Below, piece by piece: positions 1,213-35,199 of a DNA stretch of 37,026 nt (its first letter is position 1; every line of letters starts with the position of its first letter). The notes under the pieces are model-generated. The model had not been told where the DNA came from and did no database searches. It saw only the letters and a list, made by a program, of their open reading frames with translations. Both the position numbers and the translations under genes were made by a program. The stretch is taken from the IMG/VR virus record IMGVR_UViG_3300037483_001096, positions 1 to 37,026 of that record, one strand, 5' to 3'. The DNA comes from a virus (Duplodnaviria > Caudoviricetes).

Positions 1213-3582
1213 TCATGGAATTGCGTTCCCTGCTCCTTGGATACGGATGCCATCATAGACACGCATGGTCATGGTTCGACGGTGGTAGTAACTCAACCGT
1301 TCCATCTCAGTTTTGAAGTTTCGGGCATTGTACGGTTTGTACCCGTTGTCCGAACACCACTCCCGATAGCTGCGATAGATGATGCTGCTTTGGACGTTGT
1401 AGTTGATGTCAACCTCACAGGTGTCTTCAACGAACGACAAAATAGTATTCGACTCCGCTTGGTATTTGGTGGTCCAGTCCTGGATCTGCTGAACTGTTGA
1501 AAATTTGCCATTAGCCTGTAGCCGGAACAACCCCGCCAGGACCTGGTTGAAGATGCCCGGTAGTTCATCGTCAAGATAGCCCTTCAGGTCGTCAATTCGA
1601 CTTCCGCCTTGAAAATTCGCATTGAACGGGATGACCACAATCCGGCGCCAGAAACCGGTGGAGGTGTCTGTCACTGTCGGCAGCTTGTTCATGCTCCACC
1701 ACAGTTTGGCCCGGGGATACAACGTAAATGGTTCCCGCCGAATCTGTCTCACCTGGAGACTGTCGCCGGCGACCAGCTGCTTGATCACGGCGTCTTCAAC
1801 TACACCATTCGAGTCGGCTTCAGCGCATAAAGCAATTCGCTTGCCTGCCAGGTCAGCAAGCTGGTACTGTTCCCGATGAAGAAGGTTGACGTTAAATGGC
1901 GTGGCGGCATTGCCCGCCAGCTTCTCTAGAACGTGAAAGAGCACGCCCTTACCGTTGGCGCCCTCACCATAGCACCAGAACGTCACATGGTATTTGATAT
2001 CAGTGGTCAGGCTGTAGCCCATCGCCTCCAAAACAAAATTCGCCAATTCCGGATCGAAGGTGCCTCCTTTCGCCATGCTGTGGATAAAACTGCTTTTCAT
2101 GTAGTGGTCCCAATACGGGCACTTCGCCGCGGGGTCAAAGTTGAACGGCAGTTGTGTGGTCAAGTACCGACTTTTGTCGTGAGTCAACAGCGTTCGCAGC
2201 TCCAACGAATACGTGCCATTCAGCAGGTTTATCAGGCCATCGTCGGCGTCTAGTCTGTCTTCGGGAACGAATGTGTTCGCTTTGACATAGCCGGCAACGT
2301 TCGCAACTCCGTACAACGTTGCCTGGAATGTTGGTGTTTCCTTCGCTTCCAGCAACGTCCAAATTTCCCGTTCCACAACGTTGTCAGCCACTGATGACCA
2401 CACCCCGAGCGCGTAACGATACCAAGCGCCGCGGGCAAACATCATGTCGGGATGCAGCTTCATATACTCCCGACCGATTTCGGTATAGGACGGTTTGGCC
2501 GTTGGTGGATTCCGCTTCTTTTTGGGCTTGGGTTTTGGCGCTGCTCCGTTTGCTGTAGTCGTTCCGTTCGTCGCCGCACCAATCGCGCTCTGAGCGGCTT
2601 TTACAGCGTCTGGGTCCATCTGCGCATCTCCTGGCGTATAGAACGCTGTAGCGTCGTTTATGGCTTTCTGCAGAGTCGCATCTCGATAGTCAGCCCGATC
2701 CCATTTGTCGCGCATCAAACCAGATCGACGGAACAGGACGTCCATCCTGTGGATATCGCCGCCGGTCCAAAAGGCCAGAATGTTGCACAGCGCCTGGTCC
2801 GCCTTGCTGTGGTCATTGTTGTAATCAGATATGCCCCCGTTCCAGAGATCCTGGAACTTGCCACCGTCGTTGGCGTTCAGGGCCTTGTCGAGCAGCTCCT
2901 GGTCGTCCAGGTCTACAGGAGAGGGAGACGGCGAAGTTTGAACCTGCCAGCCGGCGATGATCGGATCCACCAGTGTTGCTATCGAGCCGAGCGAATACAG
3001 TCGTTCCGGCTGCCAGTCCACAATTTCCACAGGGGAGGGGGGGCTGTATTTGTGGTTCAGCGTTCCGGGGATCCGAAGTACCCGAGCCAGGTCATGGACA
3101 GTATGATCGCCACCGACGTACTGGTTCCAGGCCGTTTGAATGTTGGCGGCATACTGGCGATCCCCATCGGTTTCGATCGCAAACGGCTGATCCAGTAGCC
3201 AATAGCAGTGATATCCACCTCCGCTATCAATGACCACAGAGGGGGGGACCATCAGTGCCATGATGTGAGCTAGGGCGTCGGCCTTGCTGTGGAAATCTTT
3301 GGCATCGAATTCAGCAATCAGGCAGTTGATGGCGGCAATGGTGGCAACTGTTACCCGCTGGTGCTGACTACGCTTGACGACACCCGGATGTACCGAGAAG
3401 TAGACGTTCAGCAGTTTGATCCACCGCTTAGGTACAGGCGACAACGTTGTTGTGGAAAACCACAGAGAGACCTTTTCTACGCTGCCATCGGCTCGCTGTG
3501 GCCCATCTGGTGTCCAGTAGTGTGCCCAAGCACCACTACGGTATAGATGTGAAATGAGTTCGTAGAATCGGACGTCAACCAT
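1213..3582 (-). CDS. Primase-polymerase (RepB'-type AEP + NrS-1-like helical bundle) fused to a D5/P4-type SF3 helicase
   Basis: EFD, SGGGYHCYW, DLARVLRIPGTLNHK; SKADQALCNILAFWTG..SGLMRDKW; Walker A GEGANGKG; FWRR. Confidence 0.9.
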   Translation of the reverse strand: MVDVRFYELISHLYRSGAWAHYWTPDGPQRADGSVEKVSLWFSTTTLSPVPKRWIKLLNVYFSVHPGVVKRSQHQRVTVATIAAINCLIAEFDAKDFHSKADALAHIMALMVPPSVVIDSGGGYHCYWLLDQPFAIETDGDRQYAANIQTAWNQYVGGDHTVHDLARVLRIPGTLNHKYSPPSPVEIVDWQPERLYSLGSIATLVDPIIAGWQVQTSPSPSPVDLDDQELLDKALNANDGGKFQDLWNGGISDYNNDHSKADQALCNILAFWTGGDIHRMDVLFRRSGLMRDKWDRADYRDATLQKAINDATAFYTPGDAQMDPDAVKAAQSAIGAATNGTTTANGAAPKPKPKKKRNPPTAKPSYTEIGREYMKLHPDMMFARGAWYRYALGVWSSVADNVVEREIWTLLEAKETPTFQATLYGVANVAGYVKANTFVPEDRLDADDGLINLLNGTYSLELRTLLTHDKSRYLTTQLPFNFDPAAKCPYWDHYMKSSFIHSMAKGGTFDPELANFVLEAMGYSLTTDIKYHVTFWCYGEGANGKGVLFHVLEKLAGNAATPFNVNLLHREQYQLADLAGKRIALCAEADSNGVVEDAVIKQLVAGDSLQVRQIRREPFTLYPRAKLWWSMNKLPTVTDTSTGFWRRIVVIPFNANFQGGSRIDDLKGYLDDELPGIFNQVLAGLFRLQANGKFSTVQQIQDWTTKYQAESNTILSFVEDTCEVDINYNVQSSIIYRSYREWCSDNGYKPYNARNFKTEMERLSYYHRRTMTMRVYDGIRIQGAGNAIP

Positions 3583-4321
3583 GTCTTTCTGCCCTTATGA
3601 TTTGCTGTCCTATCCACTCTGCCACCTGCGGTACTATGGCATTTCCAAGGACTCGATATCTGTCCAACCGACCGGGAATCCCATCAAATGCTCGACAAAT
3701 TCCGGGGTCGGGTAGAGCCCGTAATCGACCGCTGCGTGATCGGTCAAGCACCCAGGACCAGCTCCCTTCGCTCGCTGCTTTTCGCAGTGCTTGATCAGGC
3801 TGGGAATGCGAAACGTCACCCGCTTGGCATCCGATGCCGTCGGCGTGCCCCACAAAGAAAACCCGTTCTCTTGCGTGCGGGAGCCCGAAGGCGCAAGCCG
3901 GAAGTACAATCGCCCATGCCGTGTAACCATAGGTTTCCAGGCCGGCGAGCACCCGATCGGCGTAAGCTGTTTTGACGATGATCCCAGGCACGTTTTCAGC
4001 AACGGTCCAAGCCGGCTGGAATTCCTGCACAACGCGAAACATCTCTGGCCAGAGATTGCGATCGTCAGCTTCACCGAATGCTCTTCCGGCTTGACTGTGG
4101 GGTTGGCAAGGGAATCCGCCGGCAATAAGGTCAACTGGTTGGTCAATGGAATCCCTCCCAAACGTACACACATCGGTGAACTTGGGCACGCATGGCCAGT
4201 GTTTCCGCAGAATCGACAGACAAAAACTATCGTTCTCCACCTGCGCAACACATCGCATTCCGGCACGTTCAAAACCGAGATCAAAGCCACCGATCCCAGC
4301 GAATAGAGAAATGAATTTCAT
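3575..4321 (-). CDS. DNA (cytosine-5) methyltransferase, alpha subunit (motifs I-VIII and X)
   Basis: LFAGIGG (I), GGFPCQ (IV), ENV (VI), RERVF (VIII), LGNAIVPQVAEWIG (X). Confidence 0.9.
   Translation of the reverse strand: MKFISLFAGIGGFDLGFERAGMRCVAQVENDSFCLSILRKHWPCVPKFTDVCTFGRDSIDQPVDLIAGGFPCQPHSQAGRAFGEADDRNLWPEMFRVVQEFQPAWTVAENVPGIIVKTAYADRVLAGLETYGYTAWAIVLPACAFGLPHARERVFFVGHADGIGCQAGDVSHSQPDQALRKAASEGSWSWVLDRSRSGRLRALPDPGICRAFDGIPGRLDRYRVLGNAIVPQVAEWIGQQIIRAERHG
3634..4146 (-). CDS. C5-methyltransferase beta subunit (TRD + motif IX) in a nested overlapping frame
   Basis: GGGAGG RBS 7 nt before TTG at 4146; LWGTPTASD and TPEFVEHLMGFPVGWT (motif IX-like), which the alpha frame lacks. 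Confidence 0.75.
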   Translation of the reverse strand: MTNQLTLLPADSLANPTVKPEEHSVKLTIAISGQRCFALCRNSSRLGPLLKTCLGSSSKQLTPIGCSPAWKPMVTRHGRLYFRLAPSGSRTQENGFSLWGTPTASDAKRVTFRIPSLIKHCEKQRAKGAGPGCLTDHAAVDYGLYPTPEFVEHLMGFPVGWTDIESLEMP

Positions 4322-5803: not shown

Positions 5804-6081
5804 GCGTCCACCGCTGTCTCTCGTATCCAGCCGACCCAGGTCCGATTGTCGAATGGCACGCCGCCCCGGAACCCGAACGTATGCTTAACCACAATACGGG
5901 TGTAGGTGGTATTGATCTGGGCTTGCCGGTCCACATCAGAATAGCTGACCAGTCCGTAACCAATGCTGCGCGCGATCCAACGCCAAACAGCCTTTGGGCT
6001 CACCTGATAGGCAGGCCAGATTACGGGCGGATTGACTTCCAGCGCATGGACACAAGCGTTCATATATTCTCTAGCGCTCAT
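5800..6081 (-). CDS. Hypothetical protein
   Basis: ATGA-coupled to its neighbours. Confidence 0.6.
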   Translation of the reverse strand: MSAREYMNACVHALEVNPPVIWPAYQVSPKAVWRWIARSIGYGLVSYSDVDRQAQINTTYTRIVVKHTFGFRGGVPFDNRTWVGWIRETAVDA

Positions 6082-6947
6082 GCGTCCACCCACCGTTCAG
6101 AGAATGTGTCTTCGCCCATCCGCCAGGACGTAACCAATACCTGCCCATCCCAATTCGTGATATCGGCCCAGTGGAGGATCCGCTCCACAACGAACCGACT
6201 AAGCTTGTCTACACCTTCAACAAGCAAATATCCACAGCGGAGGGGGGGCTGGTACTCTTGCGTCGTCGCCGTGGCGAATTGGCGGGGTCCCCGCCCCAAC
6301 GTTGCCTCAAGTGCCAACCCTGCGTTATAGCGGGCTCTAGTGTTGCCGTTCCGCAATATCTCATACGCATGTTGGATTGCTTGGAACTGACTCACAGCGT
6401 CTGGCTCAGAACAAGTGTCAGGGTGCCATTGTCGCGCCAGTCGCCGCCATGCGGTTTTGAGTTCGTCCGCCGTCGCTGTGGACATTACACCAAGCACCGA
6501 ATACAGTGTGTTGTGTTCACCAGGCCGGTCCGTTTGGCCGAACCACGATAGAAGAACCGACTTCGGCAATATCACCGACCATTCGCCATTGCACCATCCG
6601 AAAGCGCTCTCAGAGCCGTCAGGGCGATGCTTTGCCCGACCGATATAGCGAACTTCGAATATGCGCTGTTCGGTCCGTAGCGACGTTCCTATGGCTTCTG
6701 GAGGCATTTGGACATCTACCCCGAGATTTGAATAGATGATCTGGTGAAGGACCGTAGCGTAGTTGGGACTGACCTTCCATGCCTTGTCAGTCTTGGACCA
6801 TGTTCGATCTGTGTAAGGAATGTTGTTCTTGAGATCGTCAACCAACCCTTGATGATATGGTGTCTTCAGCACCAAGTAACCGTCTTCGAAACTCACTCGG
6901 ACGAAATTGGTCGTCCCACGACGGCAGGCGAAAGTTTGAGTTCTCAC
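6078..6947 (-). CDS. J-domain (DnaJ-type) protein with HARP-like N-terminus
   Basis: LYSVLGV..ADELKTAWRRLARQWHPD..FQAIQHAYEIL..RARYN; N-terminus LKTPYHQGLVDDLK..RTWSKTDKAWKV. Confidence 0.85.
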   Translation of the reverse strand: MRTQTFACRRGTTNFVRVSFEDGYLVLKTPYHQGLVDDLKNNIPYTDRTWSKTDKAWKVSPNYATVLHQIIYSNLGVDVQMPPEAIGTSLRTEQRIFEVRYIGRAKHRPDGSESAFGWCNGEWSVILPKSVLLSWFGQTDRPGEHNTLYSVLGVMSTATADELKTAWRRLARQWHPDTCSEPDAVSQFQAIQHAYEILRNGNTRARYNAGLALEATLGRGPRQFATATTQEYQPPLRCGYLLVEGVDKLSRFVVERILHWADITNWDGQVLVTSWRMGEDTFSERWVDA

Positions 6948-7732
6948 GTTGCGCCTCGGCAGCTAGTCCAGAAACCACAGTATTTCGGACCGCACAACCA
7001 CCCATTCGGATTCGGCGGAAATGCCTCCCGTTCGATGGCCTGCCACACTTGTTGGACCAAACCGAATAGCCAGAATATTTCAGCGTAGGTGTGTGAGTGT
7101 TCAATTACCTGAACCTTCGGCTGTTTGGCCTTTGTGACAATGTAATGACGAAAGCGAAGACCGGGGACTTCCACCCCGGCTTGGTTGAGACTTGCGAGAT
7201 AAAACAACGGCTGCATCTCCGATTCGGCTTTATCCGTTGACCACTGATATTTGCTGGTCTTGAAGTCACCGGGAACACCGTCGTCTGTGACAATGTCAAT
7301 GTACCCAACGATAGGGATCGGAACACCGGGAACCCACAATTCCATCTTCCGCTCTATCCACAGCCCGGATTCGTCGGAAGCTGGTGTCAGTGAGTCTGCC
7401 AGGTCCTGCACCTCCGCTGTGGACAAAATGCGAATGCCTTCGTTGTAATGCTCTTCGGGAGTGTCCGCGCCCCAGTCCACATCGGTGTTCTTTTCGATCT
7501 GTTCACCCCAAGCGGTATGCCACAGGTTTGATAGAGTTAGATCGTCGGGGATCGCCTCTATCGTTTCTTTGGTGGCGATGTAACGTTCTATAGTGTTGTG
7601 GAAGGCGGAACCGGTCAATAATGCCGGTGTTGATGGTGTAGATTCGCCTATCAGATATTTGCGGCGAAAGTTCTCCGGGCAGGTTAAGTAAAGGTTGATG
7701 GAAGAGTAGGAAAGGTGAAGTAACTCAGACAT
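6944..7732 (-). CDS. PD-(D/E)xK exonuclease, AddB/Cas4-like with Fe-S cysteines
   Basis: LSYSSINLYLTCP, GSAFH, GYIDIV, DFKT, QPLFY, C-terminal CGPKYCGFWTSC. Confidence 0.88.
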   Translation of the reverse strand: MSELLHLSYSSINLYLTCPENFRRKYLIGESTPSTPALLTGSAFHNTIERYIATKETIEAIPDDLTLSNLWHTAWGEQIEKNTDVDWGADTPEEHYNEGIRILSTAEVQDLADSLTPASDESGLWIERKMELWVPGVPIPIVGYIDIVTDDGVPGDFKTSKYQWSTDKAESEMQPLFYLASLNQAGVEVPGLRFRHYIVTKAKQPKVQVIEHSHTYAEIFWLFGLVQQVWQAIEREAFPPNPNGWLCGPKYCGFWTSCRGAT

Positions 7733-7913
7733 GGTCCTTCTCCCGTTGCTCCACGGCTGCTTCCGTTGCTTCGATAAGTTTCGTCGCCGATACCGTATAG
7801 CTAGCACCGGTAGGTAACTGAACTATTACCAATGCCGCTGTGTAACAATGCGGGAGGACCAACAACTCTTCGTCATCATCGGTCCACTCTTCGCCGTATT
7901 CAAAGATGCGCAT
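7725..7913 (-). CDS. Hypothetical protein
   Basis: TGATG-coupled start with GGAGG RBS. Confidence 0.55.
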   Translation of the reverse strand: MRIFEYGEEWTDDDEELLVLPHCYTAALVIVQLPTGASYTVSATKLIEATEAAVEQREKDHV

Positions 7914-8295: not shown

Positions 8296-8819
8296 CACCC
8301 ACCTCCACTGGCCGATGCCAGTTCCATCAACATTTCCTCCAACCACGCGCTGTATTTGTCCCAGGCGGCGGCCCAGGCGGCGTCCCAGGCGACGGCCCTG
8401 GCGGCTCTTAACTCCGTGTCTGTAGCCTGCCCGTTCAGCCACTTGCGTTTCACTTGGATAGCATTCCAGCAGCGCTCATCCGTCACGTTCGCTGCCCGGA
8501 GTGCGTCTTCCGCCACCCGACATGCGAACTCGTGCAATGTCCTGGTGGCGTCCGCCATCCACAGCACCGTACGCTGTGTCGCGCACGCCTTGTCCGGTTC
8601 GTCCTCGAGAATTTCACCGCTCAGATGCACCCGGCACACCAGCGCACCCGGAGCATATTTGAGAGCATCAATCGCCCGTTTGCTGGCGTGCAACCCGTGG
8701 TTGCACAACTTGAGCGGCGGCTCCACTGTGTAGGTTTCACCCGCCACTGCTTGACGCCCGTCGCCATTCGCCAACTTCCCGTCGTCCGGCAGAAAGTGCC
8801 AACCCAACCAATCATTCAT
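8295..8819 (-). CDS. Conserved phage protein with CxxGLHA motif and AAW repeats
   Basis: LCNHGLHAS..DALKYA..RVHLSGEI; C-terminal VAWDAAWAAAWD. Confidence 0.75.
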   Translation of the reverse strand: MNDWLGWHFLPDDGKLANGDGRQAVAGETYTVEPPLKLCNHGLHASKRAIDALKYAPGALVCRVHLSGEILEDEPDKACATQRTVLWMADATRTLHEFACRVAEDALRAANVTDERCWNAIQVKRKWLNGQATDTELRAARAVAWDAAWAAAWDKYSAWLEEMLMELASASGGG

Positions 8820-9555
8820 TGCTATTGCCCCCGTTCAGCTTCGCGGCAACCGCGGTCAATTCCTCAGTGGTCCCCGGCAGTTTGCCTTCCCCGGCCACTA
8901 ACACCGCTTCGGCGCCGTACTGTTGCACCAGATCATTGAGGTTGATCGCCGGCTCTGTGGTTATCTGTGCGGGCGTGGGTTGTTCTTCGTTTTTGACCAC
9001 AGCCGGGGACGGACGCCATTCGGTTTCAATGACATCACCGGAGGCGTCGACGTCAGCGCCGAATTCGTCTGCGCGTTTGAGGCCGCCGAGAACGTCCGGG
9101 AACACCACATCAGCGCAAAAGCCGATTGCCCGCCATCTCAGCATGTTCGGCCCATACGACTCCCACGCACCCCCAGGCTTTACCAGACCGGCCTTCTGGG
9201 CCATTTCCATTGTGAAGGTGGTTGTATATTCGATTCCGCCGCGCCGCTTCATATAAACGGTACAGGCGTCCGTCTTGTCTTCGATCCGGATTGTTTCGAG
9301 TTCGCCGCTCTGGTAGATTAGCGCCAGAGCACCGCGAGGGATGAGTGTTGGCTTGTCCTGGATCACAGCAATGAACTCAAAGGAAGCGGTCAGGGACAGA
9401 CCTAACTCAAAACCTTTACACATGATGACAGAGGCTTGGGCTACTGTCGCCACACCAAACAGCCGGCTGTCCTTCATTGTCGGCGCCACTTCCTGGATCA
9501 TGTTCCAAATGTCAGGAGTTAGACTTTGTTGCTGAACTACCAATGCTGTACTCAT
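8812..9555 (-). CDS. RecT-like single-strand annealing recombinase
   Basis: GFELGL, VIQDKPTL, FTMEMAQKAGL..W..YGPNMLRWRA..FPDVLGGL; near the exonuclease. Confidence 0.75.
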   Translation of the reverse strand: MSTALVVQQQSLTPDIWNMIQEVAPTMKDSRLFGVATVAQASVIMCKGFELGLSLTASFEFIAVIQDKPTLIPRGALALIYQSGELETIRIEDKTDACTVYMKRRGGIEYTTTFTMEMAQKAGLVKPGGAWESYGPNMLRWRAIGFCADVVFPDVLGGLKRADEFGADVDASGDVIETEWRPSPAVVKNEEQPTPAQITTEPAINLNDLVQQYGAEAVLVAGEGKLPGTTEELTAVAAKLNGGNSNE

Positions 9556-11775: not shown

Positions 11776-11990
11776 TCCTCCAGATCAATGTCTCGTTGCA
11801 TGTCTCGGAGAATGTCGTTCTGTGCCGCCAGTTCAACGGCAATAGCCGTCAACATCTGATAGAGGCCACTTTGCGTCGGCCCTGTGGTCACAATGGTGTT
11901 GATCCACTCCCGGGAGCGGCGATTCGCCCCCTCCGCTCGCGCGATCAATTCTTTGTGGATGTAGCCTCCCTTCTTTGGCTTGCGTGCCAT
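11772..11990 (-). CDS. Hypothetical protein (MARKPKK...)
   Basis: TGATG coupling with GGAGG RBS. Confidence 0.6.
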   Translation of the reverse strand: MARKPKKGGYIHKELIARAEGANRRSREWINTIVTTGPTQSGLYQMLTAIAVELAAQNDILRDMQRDIDLEE

Positions 11991-12292
11991 CAACTGCCTC
12001 CGCCAATGTGGTAGATGGTTTCGGCGGCTTGTTGCTTGTCCCGCTGGCTGCGAATGACATGATAGGCAATTTCCCCGACGATGGAAGGGGCACCTGTGGC
12101 CACAAAAGCCAGAAACACTAGACTGGTCACTTCGACGCCGGCAAGAAAATACACTCCAACCAACGTGCCAAACACGCCACCGACCGTTAGCCATGTTGCC
12201 GGATAGTCTTCTCGAACCATCCACTTGAGATAAAACACTACACCGGCATATAACACCCCGAACAACACTAGTCCCAGATAGACAGCTACCAT
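11990..12292 (-). CDS. Membrane protein (about 3 TM segments)
   Basis: GAAAGGA RBS; hydrophobic segments. Confidence 0.7.
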   Translation of the reverse strand: MVAVYLGLVLFGVLYAGVVFYLKWMVREDYPATWLTVGGVFGTLVGVYFLAGVEVTSLVFLAFVATGAPSIVGEIAYHVIRSQRDKQQAAETIYHIGGGS

Positions 12293-12372
12293 CCGTTTTT
12301 TCCTTTCAGTGCAATTTCGGTGCATTTGTGGGCGAATTCGGCACGACGTTGTAACCTGAGATCAAGAGCGGA

Positions 12373-12408
12373 GTTTCAATCCACGCCCCCCCCTGTACGG
12401 GGAACGAC
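12373..12408 (-). CRISPR. Solitary type I-C-like CRISPR repeat (not a full array)
   Basis: Minus strand GTCGTTCCCCGTACAGGGGGGGGCGTGGATTGAAAC: GTCG start, stem-loop, GCGTGGATTGAAAC end; intergenic; no cas operon in the genome. Confidence 0.8.
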
Positions 12409-12420
12409 TTGCAACTGAAG

Positions 12421-12561
12421 TCAAGAACGGAGAACCCGAATAAAACTGAAAATGGTGAAGATGCCTACCGCACACATGGATAACCACAGCCCGAGGTCGC
12501 CACCGACGGTCAGAAGGATCAGCAGGAAGATCAGGCCGAAGCCTTCAAGGCGGCTGTTCAT
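12421..12561 (-). CDS. Small membrane protein (46 aa)
   Basis: ATGA-coupled; MNSRLEGFGLIFLLILLTVGGDLGLWLSMCAVGIFTIFSFIRVLRS. Confidence 0.55.
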   Translation of the reverse strand: MNSRLEGFGLIFLLILLTVGGDLGLWLSMCAVGIFTIFSFIRVLRS

Positions 12562-13389: not shown

Positions 13390-13418
13390 ATCTTAGCATT
13401 TTATTCTTAGACTGTCAA
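13390..13418 (-). promoter_or_regulatory. Early lytic sigma70-type promoter
   Basis: TTGACA-17 nt-TAAGAT on the minus strand. Confidence 0.8.
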
Positions 13419-13473: not shown

Positions 13474-13983
13474 ATGGATATGGGGAAAGTTGCGGCAAGA
13501 ATAACCGAAGTACGCGAAAAGTTGACCTACAACCAAGCTGGGGTAGCGAAGATTGCGGGCGTGCAACAGAAGACAATTAGCAATTGGGAGAGGGGTGTTT
13601 TACCGCAACAGTGGGAGAGTCTGATCGCTCTTGCCGAATCTGTGGAAACAACGACCGATTATCTACTTGGTCTGTCCGACGATCCATGTCCACAGAAGGG
13701 GCAGGAACTAACCGCCGATCTCCGCTCCATTGTGGACATCTGCCAGCAGCTACCGGCTGCCAGACGCGGTGATGTCCTGGCTATTGCCGAAGCAATCGCA
13801 CAGCGCGAAGCAGAACAACGAGCTTTGGACATGGTGAAAGCTGTTGGCGGGGAAGACGCTTTAGCCGAAATTGTGGGGATACTTGAACTTGCCGAGAGGG
13901 AGGGGTCTGATGCTGCCAGGGCATACATTCAGGCCAAGAGAGTGCGCCTCAAGGATGTAAACAAGATAGTCAATGATCAGTGA
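13474..13983 (+). CDS. XRE-family HTH immunity repressor (no S24 autopeptidase domain)
   Basis: YNQAGVAKIAGVQQKTISNWERG..LAESVETTTDYLLG. Confidence 0.9.
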   Translation: MDMGKVAARITEVREKLTYNQAGVAKIAGVQQKTISNWERGVLPQQWESLIALAESVETTTDYLLGLSDDPCPQKGQELTADLRSIVDICQQLPAARRGDVLAIAEAIAQREAEQRALDMVKAVGGEDALAEIVGILELAEREGSDAARAYIQAKRVRLKDVNKIVNDQ

Positions 13984-14308: not shown

Positions 14309-14362
14309 GCCCCCTTAGCTCAGAGGATAGAGCAGAGGTTTCCTAAACCTTTGGTCCCAGGT
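14309..14362 (+). tRNA. 5' fragment of tRNA-Arg(CCT), probable attP core
   Basis: GCCCCCT-TA-GCTC-AGAGGATA-GAGC-A-GAGGT-TTCCTAA-ACCTT-TGGTC-CCAGG-T; T-loop, T-stem 3' strand and acceptor 3' strand are missing; next to the integrase. Confidence 0.85.
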
Positions 14363-14452
14363 GGCAAGCCCAAACTCCCTGCATATTGTATCCGCTTCGT
14401 GCGCGCATACTAGATATTGTGGCACTCCCTCAACAAAACAGGAGATGCCACG

Positions 14453-31930: not shown

Positions 31931-32331
31931 GATTGCCAGAACTCCCCGATTTCCTTCTCAAAGTCTTCCTGAATGGGGCCGGATAGTTGATCAACGGCGT
32001 CCTGGTCGGTCTGCCAGTGGCCCATCCAGCGCGCCTGAAACTGTTCACTCTGCACGAACGGACCATAGCTGACATTGTTGCCCGCCCTGCCTTCCAGGCC
32101 GTCACTGGTCTCCTTGATTTCCACGGGCGTCTGCGTCCACTTCTGCCCTAGCCGCTCAGAGCGGGGATCTCGTCCCCGCCGATAGCGACTGCCTGCCGGT
32201 GACGGTGGGTAGTCGGCCATGAAGCCCACGAGGCGAGCCAGGCCGCGCTGCATGGGCTTACGCAGGATGCGCATGGCCTCCAGTACTCCAACTTTTTCGA
32301 TCAACGCCTCCATGCCGGGGATGTCGATCAT
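31927..32331 (-). CDS. HK97 gp10-like neck / tail completion protein
   Basis: RYRRG..LGQKW..GNNVSYGPFVQ. Confidence 0.7.
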   Translation of the reverse strand: MIDIPGMEALIEKVGVLEAMRILRKPMQRGLARLVGFMADYPPSPAGSRYRRGRDPRSERLGQKWTQTPVEIKETSDGLEGRAGNNVSYGPFVQSEQFQARWMGHWQTDQDAVDQLSGPIQEDFEKEIGEFWQS

Positions 32332-35048
32332 GCGCCGGTCTCCCCCACCGCCACGTTAGCCAGTGGTCCACAAATGGGACATACCGCTTCATCCTGGCTA
32401 GTTCGCCAGACATAGACCCACTTGCCGTCCCGCTCCTGCAGCACCAGCCAGCACCGACAGCCGATATGAGAGTCCCGCACCGGCCGCTTCTCTGGATCCT
32501 TCGTGGCCAGACCGCTAGCCTTCCAGCCCTGCACGTTGCCTTCGGCGATGGCGACGGTCACTTCGTTGGAGGCGATAAGAGTTGCCCGTGTCAGGCCAAA
32601 GGTAGGCTCCAGTTCATCAATGAGAGACCGCAGCGGATCACCGTTCTCAATCCACTGGCCCACGGCCTGACCTACTTGCTTCTTCGTAGTCTCGTTGACC
32701 CGGGTGATGAGTTCGCCGGCGTACTGATTGGCCCAGTCCCGGGCCGCCGTGTTGGCCAGCGTCCAGTCGAAGCGCAAACCCACCCGTTCCAGTTGGCGTA
32801 CAGAAATGCGTACGCCCAGATCGGAGGATTCCACCAGCGCCTTACGCAGGGCATCCCGCACTATGCCAGCGGTTTCTTCCACCCGCCCGACGGCACCCGC
32901 CGCCTGTTCCACCGTCATCCCGGCCGGGATGACCACATCCAACTGGGCCTGCAGGGCCTGTTCGATCTCAGCCTGGATCTTGCGTTCCAGGTTCATGCGC
33001 TCTTGTTGCTCGGCTTCGCCGTCATCCGGATCGAGCTGCAGGGTCATGACTTTAGTTGGCGCTTTGGCCGGGAAGTGCTCCTGGAGGATGGCCAGCTTCT
33101 CAACGTCGGAGAGAACAGCGCTCTCGAATTGGCCGGGATCCGGTTGTTCCCGACGCTTGCACCAGCGCTTGAACGTCTCGATCTCAGCCGCCTTGACGGC
33201 CACCGGATCCTGCAACGGGTAGGCCCGATAATCACCGGCCCAAGCCAGGGTCACGGCGTCGAAGCGCACATCAATGGGCGGCACGGAAATGACCGGTGTG
33301 GATGCCTCGGCCGGTACGTAGCCCAGGGTGATGTGGGGTGTGAACCCATGCACGCTGGGCGAACTTAGCCCCTGCTCCGCCAGGGCCGCCAGCAAATCCT
33401 CCCGCCAGCGCTGAATCTGGTAAGAGTCGAAAGAGACGTAGACGGCCTGGGCGCCGGTGTCCTCAACGCTGTTGAAGCGGCCCAGGCCGCTGAGTTGCCC
33501 CACAACCGGCGGCATCGTACTGGCGAAATTGACGACTGCCTCTTCCAGCGCCATCCTGTCGTCGATGCCCAATTCCGTACTGTCCCCCAAATAGGCCATG
33601 GTCAGGTGCAGTTCGTTGGCCGGCGTCGGTGCAGAGTTGATGGGCAATGCTCCCTGCATGCCCACCAGTTCGGCCCGCACATCCGGCGGCATGAAAAAGG
33701 CCACCATGACGCCGGTCTGGGCCTTCAGGGCCGCCGCTTTCAGGGCCGCCTTGGCCGGTTCCTGGGCCGCTACGGTGCTTTCCGCTACCGTGGTTGGCTG
33801 GATATCATCGACGGGCGCTGCGGCCATCTGGGCCGTTCCTGAGGGCGTGGCGCCGGCTTTGGTGACTTCCTCCACCAACAGGCTCCCCCGCTCATCACCC
33901 AAACCGTCATCGCCGTAGTACTGCTTGCGTGTCTCATCCACAGTGTGGACACGAGCAAATGCCTCCTGCTCCTGCAACTCGAGTTGACGGTCCGTTTCCC
34001 GGATATCGTCGAACTCTGCCGTGAGGTTGGGGCCGTAGGCGGGCAGCAGATCGTTGCTGATCTTCTCCGCTATACTGACCATGCGCGGCCACACGGCCAG
34101 CTCCGTGAAGGTCTTCTTGCCGGTCACCGAGTTGGCTTCGGTAGCGTTGACGTCGATCATCGACGACAGCCCAGGCGCAAAGACGGCAAAAATCTCCTCC
34201 TTGTTGAAACGCCTGGCCTCCAGGAACTCCATATCCTTCTGGGTCATGGCCATGCTCACCCATTCCACGCCACCCTTGCCCACGTTGCGCAGCATCATCA
34301 AATTACGGCGCACACCGCCTTGTTCTTCCTTGACATCGGCTTTTAGCTTTTTCCAGTCACTATCGCCGATGGGATCCGCAAAGGCCAGGGCACCAGGCGC
34401 TTTGGCATTATCTTTGTCGAAAAAGTTGGTGTTCCACTGCTGCATAGCCATGTCACCCGTAGCCACCGTAGCCAGAGGTTCGACGGACGACAGACCCACG
34501 TAATTGTTGAGCGGATGAAAACGCCGAAAGTGGACGATCTCCCACGGTTCCAGCGGGATCTCGGTGCCGTCGCCGGGATCGTACAGGTAGCCTCGCAGAT
34601 AGAGACGGCCGTCGGGTACCGGGCGCAAGCGATACGAGGGGATGACCCACAGCTCCGAAGGCGGCACGTCCGGCCGCGTGCGGTTCAGCCACCAGTAGCC
34701 GTTGCCGGTCAGGCCAACGTGGCTAAACGTGGCCTCCAGGAACTCAAAGCGGGACATAAGCGGGTTGGGCCGGCGCAGCAGCTGCTCGAACGGATGGTTG
34801 GGGATGTCCACAGCCTCTTCCCCCTCCAACTGCTTGACGTTCAGGGCCGCAATGGCCGCCGTCTGGGCCACCATACTGACGGCGATGTGCACCCAGGACA
34901 GGCGCTGATACAACTCGAGTTGGGCGTGGGGCAGCCAGGTCTCGGGCACGCTGAAACGTTCAGCGGCGCCTGTGGCCTGCAACCAGGCCGGCACATTATC
35001 CACAACCGCCTTGGCGCTCCTGGCCAGCAATCGGTTCAGGTATCCCAT
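32328..35048 (-). CDS. Portal protein fused to a 2H phosphodiesterase and a MuF (minor head) domain
   Basis: HK97-type portal (LLRRPNPLMSRFEF, EIVHFR, GLSSVE); HLT and HIT 2H motifs; MuF-like ITRVNETTK..RATLIASNE and Cys motifs; one uninterrupted ORF. Confidence 0.88.
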   Translation of the reverse strand: MGYLNRLLARSAKAVVDNVPAWLQATGAAERFSVPETWLPHAQLELYQRLSWVHIAVSMVAQTAAIAALNVKQLEGEEAVDIPNHPFEQLLRRPNPLMSRFEFLEATFSHVGLTGNGYWWLNRTRPDVPPSELWVIPSYRLRPVPDGRLYLRGYLYDPGDGTEIPLEPWEIVHFRRFHPLNNYVGLSSVEPLATVATGDMAMQQWNTNFFDKDNAKAPGALAFADPIGDSDWKKLKADVKEEQGGVRRNLMMLRNVGKGGVEWVSMAMTQKDMEFLEARRFNKEEIFAVFAPGLSSMIDVNATEANSVTGKKTFTELAVWPRMVSIAEKISNDLLPAYGPNLTAEFDDIRETDRQLELQEQEAFARVHTVDETRKQYYGDDGLGDERGSLLVEEVTKAGATPSGTAQMAAAPVDDIQPTTVAESTVAAQEPAKAALKAAALKAQTGVMVAFFMPPDVRAELVGMQGALPINSAPTPANELHLTMAYLGDSTELGIDDRMALEEAVVNFASTMPPVVGQLSGLGRFNSVEDTGAQAVYVSFDSYQIQRWREDLLAALAEQGLSSPSVHGFTPHITLGYVPAEASTPVISVPPIDVRFDAVTLAWAGDYRAYPLQDPVAVKAAEIETFKRWCKRREQPDPGQFESAVLSDVEKLAILQEHFPAKAPTKVMTLQLDPDDGEAEQQERMNLERKIQAEIEQALQAQLDVVIPAGMTVEQAAGAVGRVEETAGIVRDALRKALVESSDLGVRISVRQLERVGLRFDWTLANTAARDWANQYAGELITRVNETTKKQVGQAVGQWIENGDPLRSLIDELEPTFGLTRATLIASNEVTVAIAEGNVQGWKASGLATKDPEKRPVRDSHIGCRCWLVLQERDGKWVYVWRTSQDEAVCPICGPLANVAVGETGA

Positions 35049-35049
35049 T

Positions 35050-35199
35050 TCAGTGCGTTGCCCCCAACAGGCCCAGGACCAGCAGGCCCAGGCCGGCGAC
35101 AATGAGTGCGGCCGGCAGACTGACCATGGCCACACCTATCACCAGCAGCACGAACCCGACCGCCGCTATCCAGTCGTTTCCGTCCAGATGCGCCATCAT
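35050..35199 (-). CDS. Small membrane protein between terL and portal (49 aa)
   Basis: ATGA overlap with the terL stop; two hydrophobic segments. Confidence 0.65.
   Translation of the reverse strand: MMAHLDGNDWIAAVGFVLLVIGVAMVSLPAALIVAGLGLLVLGLLGATH

Follow-up and report, generated by a model that had tools for sequence, protein, structure and literature searches.

The window analysed here (the whole stretch of 37,026 nucleotides, IMG/VR virus record IMGVR_UViG_3300037483_001096) is a temperate phage whose early lytic operon contains a single type I-C CRISPR repeat set between two diverged copies of one sequence, the upstream copy being preceded by the canonical type I-C PAM. The repeat was probably captured from the CRISPR array of a host by recombination at a former protospacer, since the same layout recurs beyond chance among other viral lone repeats and since insertion is proven in other phages by a split IS3 transposase gene and by an insert-free sister phage. 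A lone type I-C repeat is in itself ordinary; the new feature with respect to known lone repeats and mini-arrays is its setting, in the order PAM, copy, repeat, copy. As for the function that has been retained, we tentatively favour a guide directed against related phages, with a decoy action as its side effect. Lone phage repeats have hitherto been read as decoys, and some of these "decoys" may be guides against kin.

The phage genome and its early operon

Genes annotated in the window include those for terminase, portal, tape measure, holin, integrase, a CI-like repressor, a RecT-like protein, an exonuclease and a primase; the window ends in 127-nt terminal repeats, and its CheckV completeness is 59. 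The host is probably an Anaerolineae, because the homolog cluster of a 228-aa early protein, the one cluster of six examined that bore names, includes proteins of Ornatilinea apprima and of a Chloroflexi MAG.

The initial annotation had drawn attention to a 36-nt element in the sense direction of the early operon, about 1 kb from its promoter, in a phage devoid of a cas operon. The element is indeed intergenic and in the sense direction of the leftward early lytic operon, 982 nt downstream of a promoter-like site (13418-13390), and no terminator-like site was found on its strand (Table 1). The absence of a cas operon is likewise borne out: cas1 was not found in the phage by a search that detected 7 of 14 controls, and the sole cas-like match among the 44 main ORFs, to a Cas4-like exonuclease, scored far below the cut-off; a search for cas5d detected 0 controls. 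No acr-like neighbour of the element was recognised. The start/stop overlap of the hydrophobic 46-aa ORF upstream resembles that of coupled phage genes, and the search for homologs of this ORF returned none besides itself. For the 101-aa membrane ORF downstream, one search gave the ORF alone and tblastn gave homologs, which are present in 5 of 63 related loci, all without a repeat upstream.

Elsewhere in the genome, the 8-mers TG(T/A)CCACA and their complements, which resemble DnaA boxes, occupy 40 sites from 724 to 34805 (8-12 copies each) on both strands, in genic and intergenic sequence, at 7-24 times the third-order Markov expectation. Just after the primase-helicase gene, positions 935-1170 hold a long inverted repeat (71-nt arms, 79%) with short iteron-like repeats, which folds at -112 kcal/mol and is likely the replication origin. 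A tRNA-like piece before the integrase gene (14309-14366; Rfam 34 bits, not called by ARAGORN) is likely an attP that restores the end of a host tRNA. The portal protein (32328-35135) is fused to a 2H phosphoesterase (2'-5' RNA ligase-like) domain, and the early operon also encodes a DnaJ-domain protein (6078-6947) and a C5 cytosine methyltransferase (3575-4321).

Table 1. Positions in the window of the repeat element, its flanks and the early-operon features discussed in the text.
Feature	Position	Strand	Remarks
Sigma-70-like promoter, 10/12, extended -10	13390..13418	-	Heads the early operon; divergent from the CI-like repressor
CI-like repressor	13474-13983		Divergent from the early-operon promoter
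46-aa hydrophobic orphan ORF	12421..12561	-	Start overlaps preceding stop; 3' end is copy A
TTC (canonical type I-C PAM)	12432..12434	-	Directly 5' of copy A; inside Val-Leu codons of the 46-aa ORF
Copy A, 23 nt, protospacer-like	12409..12431	-	Upstream of the repeat; includes stop and final codons of the 46-aa ORF
Type I-C CRISPR repeat	12373..12408	-	36 nt: 8-bp stem, 7-nt loop, 11-nt tail (predicted Cas5d handle)
Copy B, 25 nt, spacer position	12348..12372	-	Adjoins the repeat downstream; not preceded by a PAM; predicted guide start
Possible decayed second repeat	12314..12347	-	7/8 at start and 7/11 at end match the repeat; stem lost
101-aa membrane ORF	11990..12295	-	Downstream of the element
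RecT-like annealing protein	8812..9555	-	Same operon as the element; candidate capture machinery (putative role)
Exonuclease	6944-7807		Early operon, with the RecT-like protein

The repeat element

The G8 run, the length of 36 and the coordinates of the element are exact in the sequence, and a contig from a second run, in another study, is identical to the window at 12368-12518, without a gap or a differing letter (depth 2). Assignment to type I-C, as proposed in the initial annotation, is supported by the GTCG start, the stem and the 11-nt tail, which are as in arrays beside cas7c and cas1c: the first 10 and last 19 bases are identical to those of the 33-nt array repeats at two collected loci (L213, L211), the former adjoining cas7c, cas4 and cas1c (all above cut-off), and the 29 positions common to the element and these repeats show 0 changes. 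The stem, which had been thought longer than usual owing to the G8 run, is of 8 bp as in the array repeats; stem and tail are unchanged, and the 3 extra nucleotides lie in the loop. Two sister phages (L019 and L039) carry lone repeats of 36 and 38 nt that differ solely in the length of the G run, so such runs slip. The 7-nt loop may reduce cutting of the element by Cas5d, which cleaves at the base of the stem to give an 11-nt handle. Processing of type I-C crRNA by Cas5 is described in the accessible text of PMC10651486.

The hairpin is unexceptional in stability (z -1.76; 11 of 200 shuffles were equally stable). The 14-nt tail of the repeat has a single exact copy genome-wide (0.00024 exact matches expected), and allowing up to 3 mismatches gives 4 genome matches as against 4.19 by chance. 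By the rule that defines solitary repeat units (SRUs), namely an intergenic position and no flank match above 70% inside 100 bp, the element is solitary, being intergenic with flank identities of 42% and 47%. An SRUFinder-type score reached at best 19/33 bases and 38.2 bits against just the 93 array repeats from loci collected here; the published rule is at least 90% identity over 90% of a known repeat, at 41.1 bits, with a set of 17,823 repeats (PMC10651486, accessible text). An Rfam search gave no match at the element, its exact sequence had 0 matches in viral contigs, and it was not present on the one strand searched in 9 supplementary files of PMC10651486, which may not cover the full SRU catalogue.

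A PAM-anchored duplication around the repeat

Copies A and B constitute a diverged direct duplication, with 26/33 positions matching when aligned, the first 8 repeat bases included, and the best genome match of copy B is copy A. The same geometry at 13/16 was found at 14 of 24,598 sampled positions in this genome, 0 of them with TTC. The copies differ at ungapped positions 5, 12, 13, 18, 20, 21 and 22. Within the 11 coding bases of copy A the sole difference is that at position 5, a silent change in an Arg codon (CGT/CGC) that falls in the seed, and the differences at 12, 13, 18 and 20-22 all lie after the stop of the 46-aa ORF; the argument from a silent change depends on an unproven gene, since this ORF matched only itself. 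TTC is the best type I-C PAM (PMC5602111; PMC10579709), type I-C spacers range from 33 to 37 nt (PMC5602111), and an editing assay with the Dvu type I-C system found mismatches to be tolerated solely at positions 6, 12, 18, 24 and 30 (PMC10579709), as far as the accessible text of these sources goes. The carrier's own sites are altered, copy A being mismatched and shortened and copy B standing without a PAM.

A guide of 34 nt that starts with copy B would extend to 12339. No second hairpin that would mark its 3' end was found downstream of the element, and the segment that follows copy B matches the repeat at 14/19 end positions, a score reached by 0.4% of 1848 background positions (a post hoc comparison). 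That this segment is a decayed second repeat is possible but doubtful, and no such trace was found in the other duplicated cases described below; or else it is resident phage sequence whose first 8 nt were used as microhomology. Copy A stops where copy B continues with 8 bases that resemble the start of the repeat, and the shortening of copy A fits a microhomology deletion.

Recurrence among other viral lone repeats

Three pattern scans of viral contigs (the second and third covering 16 and 42 of 64 parts), together with the window, gave at least 332 loci. Tails that lay in arrays (433), lacked a GTC start (92) or had short flanks (7) were excluded, which left at least 146 lone repeats, and at least 125 after removal of near-duplicates, the window included. 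Among the matches listed, duplication of the flanks at 13/16 is present in 7 of 125 lone type I-C repeats (window included), compared with 0.1 expected from swapped flanks and 0.2 from shuffled ones, and the other 118 have no such duplication; the third scan added 0 further duplicated cases among the matches listed. A control within each locus gave two hits at 13/16, L034, which is a missed array and is discounted as a lone repeat, and L155, whose sequence is repetitive locally and which is for that reason not counted as a duplicated case. The duplicated cases beyond the window, again among the matches listed, are then L076, L201, L147, L015 and L193. L076 has an exact 33-nt duplication whose upstream copy follows TTG, and L201 an exact 34-nt duplication after TTC with one extra base, which puts the register of the guide off by 1; both lengths fit the range of type I-C spacers. 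L147 has an exact 15-nt duplication after TTT. When the test is anchored on the PAM, 4 of 125 lone repeats (the window, L042, L147 and L155, among the matches listed) are recovered where 0.10 are expected. In L042 and L182, as in the window, the end of a gene is duplicated with a silent change.

An overlap of the upstream copy with a -10-like box, as judged by eye, is seen at L193 and L147, where the seed matches are perfect (11 positions after CTT at L193 and 15 after TTT at L147); lone repeats such as these are candidates for repression of their own promoter. One 57-kb phage contig (L042, L054, L055) contains three type I-C repeat loci, two of them lone repeats and one a two-repeat mini-array.

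Insertion in other phages and searches for relatives

At L201, on a viral contig, the repeat and the duplicate copy split the gene of an IS3 transposase, with HTH_21 before and rve after them, and an intact homolog of this transposase has the duplicated motif once; the split gene also has an in-frame stop. L182, at the end of a terminase gene, is a weaker case (12/16, below the 13/16 bar), and its repeat is present in 2 of 80 related loci. L411, a sister phage of the L182 carriers with 93% identity across the locus, is missing 48 nt, and in it TTT is followed by 40/40 of the bases found downstream of the insert in the carriers; the downstream copy is therefore the resident one, and the upstream copy an altered duplicate. 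After the repeat, the carriers contain 4 additional bases, which put their guide out of register. In these sister phages (L410, L411, L412), both filled and empty lone-repeat alleles are found at the terminase-portal junction. For L042 no empty allele was found, both relatives recovered carrying the repeat. The insert-free sister and the split transposase are proof of insertion in these other phages, and by analogy the repeat plus one copy was presumably inserted in the window as well.

An insert-less allele of the window phage was not found among 408 loci or in the contigs of two runs, one of them possibly the source of the window (the result from the contigs not being proof of absence), and these contigs likewise showed no joint or variant at the element. 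A search of IMG/VR for close relatives by the ERCC4-like protein gave 0 loci. Among relatives with 30-70% best-segment identity in their marker protein, no such repeat is present in any of 13 phage records or 63 loci. Among GTDB genomes, an exact pattern of the repeat end with the seed of the guide had 0 matches; a looser repeat pattern matched 4 genomes, none of them Chloroflexota, so the repeat pattern identified no host.

Origin and function of the repeat

In the favoured account, the phage would have crossed into a host array at a spacer matching its protospacer and left by recombination between repeats; alternatively, it may have taken up an excised circle of repeat and spacer. Either route would yield the order PAM, S, repeat, S, in which S is of spacer length, and L076 and L201 look like fresh products of such capture. 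The upstream copy would then be targeted by the new guide as well as by the host spacer, and for this reason would erode wherever coding permits. In the window, copy A appears to have retained the end of the gene and lost its quality as a target, through the silent seed change, the changes after the stop and the shortening to 23 nt. With copy A thus degraded and protected by mismatches at positions 5 and 13, where they are not tolerated, and with copy B lacking a PAM, the carrier is predicted to escape its own guide as well as the host spacer.

Upon lytic induction, Cas5d is predicted to cut the early transcript, and an RNA made of the 11-nt handle and about 34 nt beginning with copy B would be loaded. 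An insert-less relative would retain TTC followed by the sequence of copy B, for which reason this RNA would serve as a complete guide against kin, and such a relative would be cut by the Cascade-Cas3 of the host. The same processed RNA would occupy Cascade, a Racr-like side effect. A lysogen probably does not express the guide, since the operon is a lytic one. The layout can be tested across the published SRU catalogue with the PAM of each subtype. It is decidedly unlikely that the element goes further and homes without a protein of its own: a repeat inserted at a PAM would make a guide of the adjacent phage sequence, the Cascade-Cas3 of the host would cut insert-less sisters at that very site, and RecT-type repair by the phage would copy the insert into them. 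If true, this would be a CRISPR gene drive of about 60 bases run on host enzymes, and capture at protospacers would be a general source of lone repeats and of Racrs as well.

Alternative explanations

The initial annotation had read the element as a Racr, and that reading survives in part. The repeat is intact in the early sense transcript, a location that fits a Racr, it passes the solitary test, and a decoy effect is plausible; RacrIC1 inhibits type I-C systems (PMC10651486), viral guides compete for Cas proteins regardless of their target (bioRxiv 10.1101/2024.10.29.618823), both according to the accessible text, and a decoy is compatible with capture as the origin. The flanks, however, had been ignored, and because they are two copies of one PAM-preceded sequence the processed RNA would carry a guide with a natural target. 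A repeat retained purely as a decoy that ties up Cas5d and Cas7, whatever its origin and with the guide irrelevant, would leave the clean junction of repeat and guide unused. It is also not accompanied by a recognised acr-like neighbour, and cutting in type I-C leaves a full 5' handle, with which a targeting complex is expected; on balance we think a plain decoy not very likely. We regard as unlikely an escape scar without RNA function, in which a site hit by a host spacer was destroyed by the insertion together with the changes in copy A and the repeat is a passenger. Its absence from all related phages examined and its abnormal loop are what a scar would show, as are the insertion in a dead IS at L201 and the guide out of register at L182, but the repeat is unchanged at its 29 shared positions while the copies differ at 7/33 (a suggestive comparison, in which the spacer may have differed initially).

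Regulation of the phage by its own element could take two forms, both of them embraced by a reading that we hold to be very unlikely: a crlRNA, whose short guide (25 nt, bounded by a decayed second repeat) would bring Cascade to copy A without cutting, or a switch that senses Cas5d, in which the cut would sever the replication and recombination genes from their promoter and bias the phage away from lysis in CRISPR-active cells. The element does precede those genes, the PAM and 10 of the first 11 positions of copy A are kept, and the trace of a second repeat and the -10-like boxes at L193 and L147 point in the same direction. Nevertheless, copy A offers only 4 PAM-proximal matches before a mismatch, fewer than the 9 used for Cracr and CreR, no two-hexamer promoter-like site was found there, the preservation of PAM and seed is explained by protein coding, and the positions at which type I-C tolerated mismatches in the editing assay (PMC10579709) are few. 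Type I-C Cracrs exist, with a layout of repeat, short spacer and decayed repeat (bioRxiv 10.1101/2024.10.29.618823, accessible text), and a guide aimed at the promoter of the host cas genes was considered on that account; we judge it highly improbable, for the guide is already explained as adjacent phage sequence and the exact pattern of repeat end and seed occurred in 0 genomes.

Comparison with known systems

No published description of a lone repeat inside a PAM-anchored duplication was found among titles and abstract openings, most subscription papers being beyond reach. The element resembles the SRUs, and RacrIC1 in particular, in being one intergenic repeat of host type I-C inside an mRNA of a phage that lacks cas genes (PMC10651486, whose accessible text does not address the origin of SRUs). 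Unlike RacrIC1, it is flanked by a PAM-anchored duplication that would give its product a natural target, and it lacks a recognised acr neighbour.

Recombination between spacers and protospacers of phages and CRISPR loci was reportedly observed by Varble et al. in 2019. Uptake of repeat-spacer units by phage AP1.1 is described in the accessible text of bioRxiv 10.1101/2020.10.09.333658. As in those cases, phage DNA would here have joined a host array and departed with parts of it; in contrast to them, where host loci are moved or an integrase acts at the repeat, one repeat lies in a duplicated protospacer, far from the attP.

With Cracr and CreR/CreA (bioRxiv 10.1101/2024.10.29.618823; 10.1101/2023.03.03.530964) the element shares a short spacer-like part, a possible decayed repeat and a partial, PAM-flanked match. 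The accessible text of the former preprint gives at least 9 PAM-proximal matches as the rule for Cracr and CreR; the phage's own site has 4 matches and no promoter. What it matches is the end of a gene of the phage itself, not a cas or toxin promoter, and the match is broken at position 5.

The element would work in the manner of viral mini-arrays (Medvedeva et al. 2019, PMC6858448; Faure et al. 2019, on the account given in PMC6858448 and PMC11656645): according to the accessible text of PMC6858448, these target neighbouring loci of related viruses and avoid self-targeting by point mutations or deletions. The phage is likewise without cas genes, the predicted target of the guide lies next to the repeat, and the phage's own site is mutated and shortened; a match to a related virus at the neighbouring locus is seen in the analogous case of L182 and L411, where it is out of register, no close relative of the window having been found. 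The element differs from mini-arrays in having one intact repeat instead of two, in a target copy that abuts the repeat and in a guide that is the phage's own sequence. It is not classed as a mini-array, because these have two repeats around a spacer and its only candidate for a second is a trace without a stem. PMC6858448 proposes that leaderless phage arrays come from recombination with host arrays and, in its accessible text, leaves the closeness of spacer and target unexplained; the layout of PAM, copy, repeat and copy offers one route both to lone repeats and to mini-arrays that target adjacent loci.
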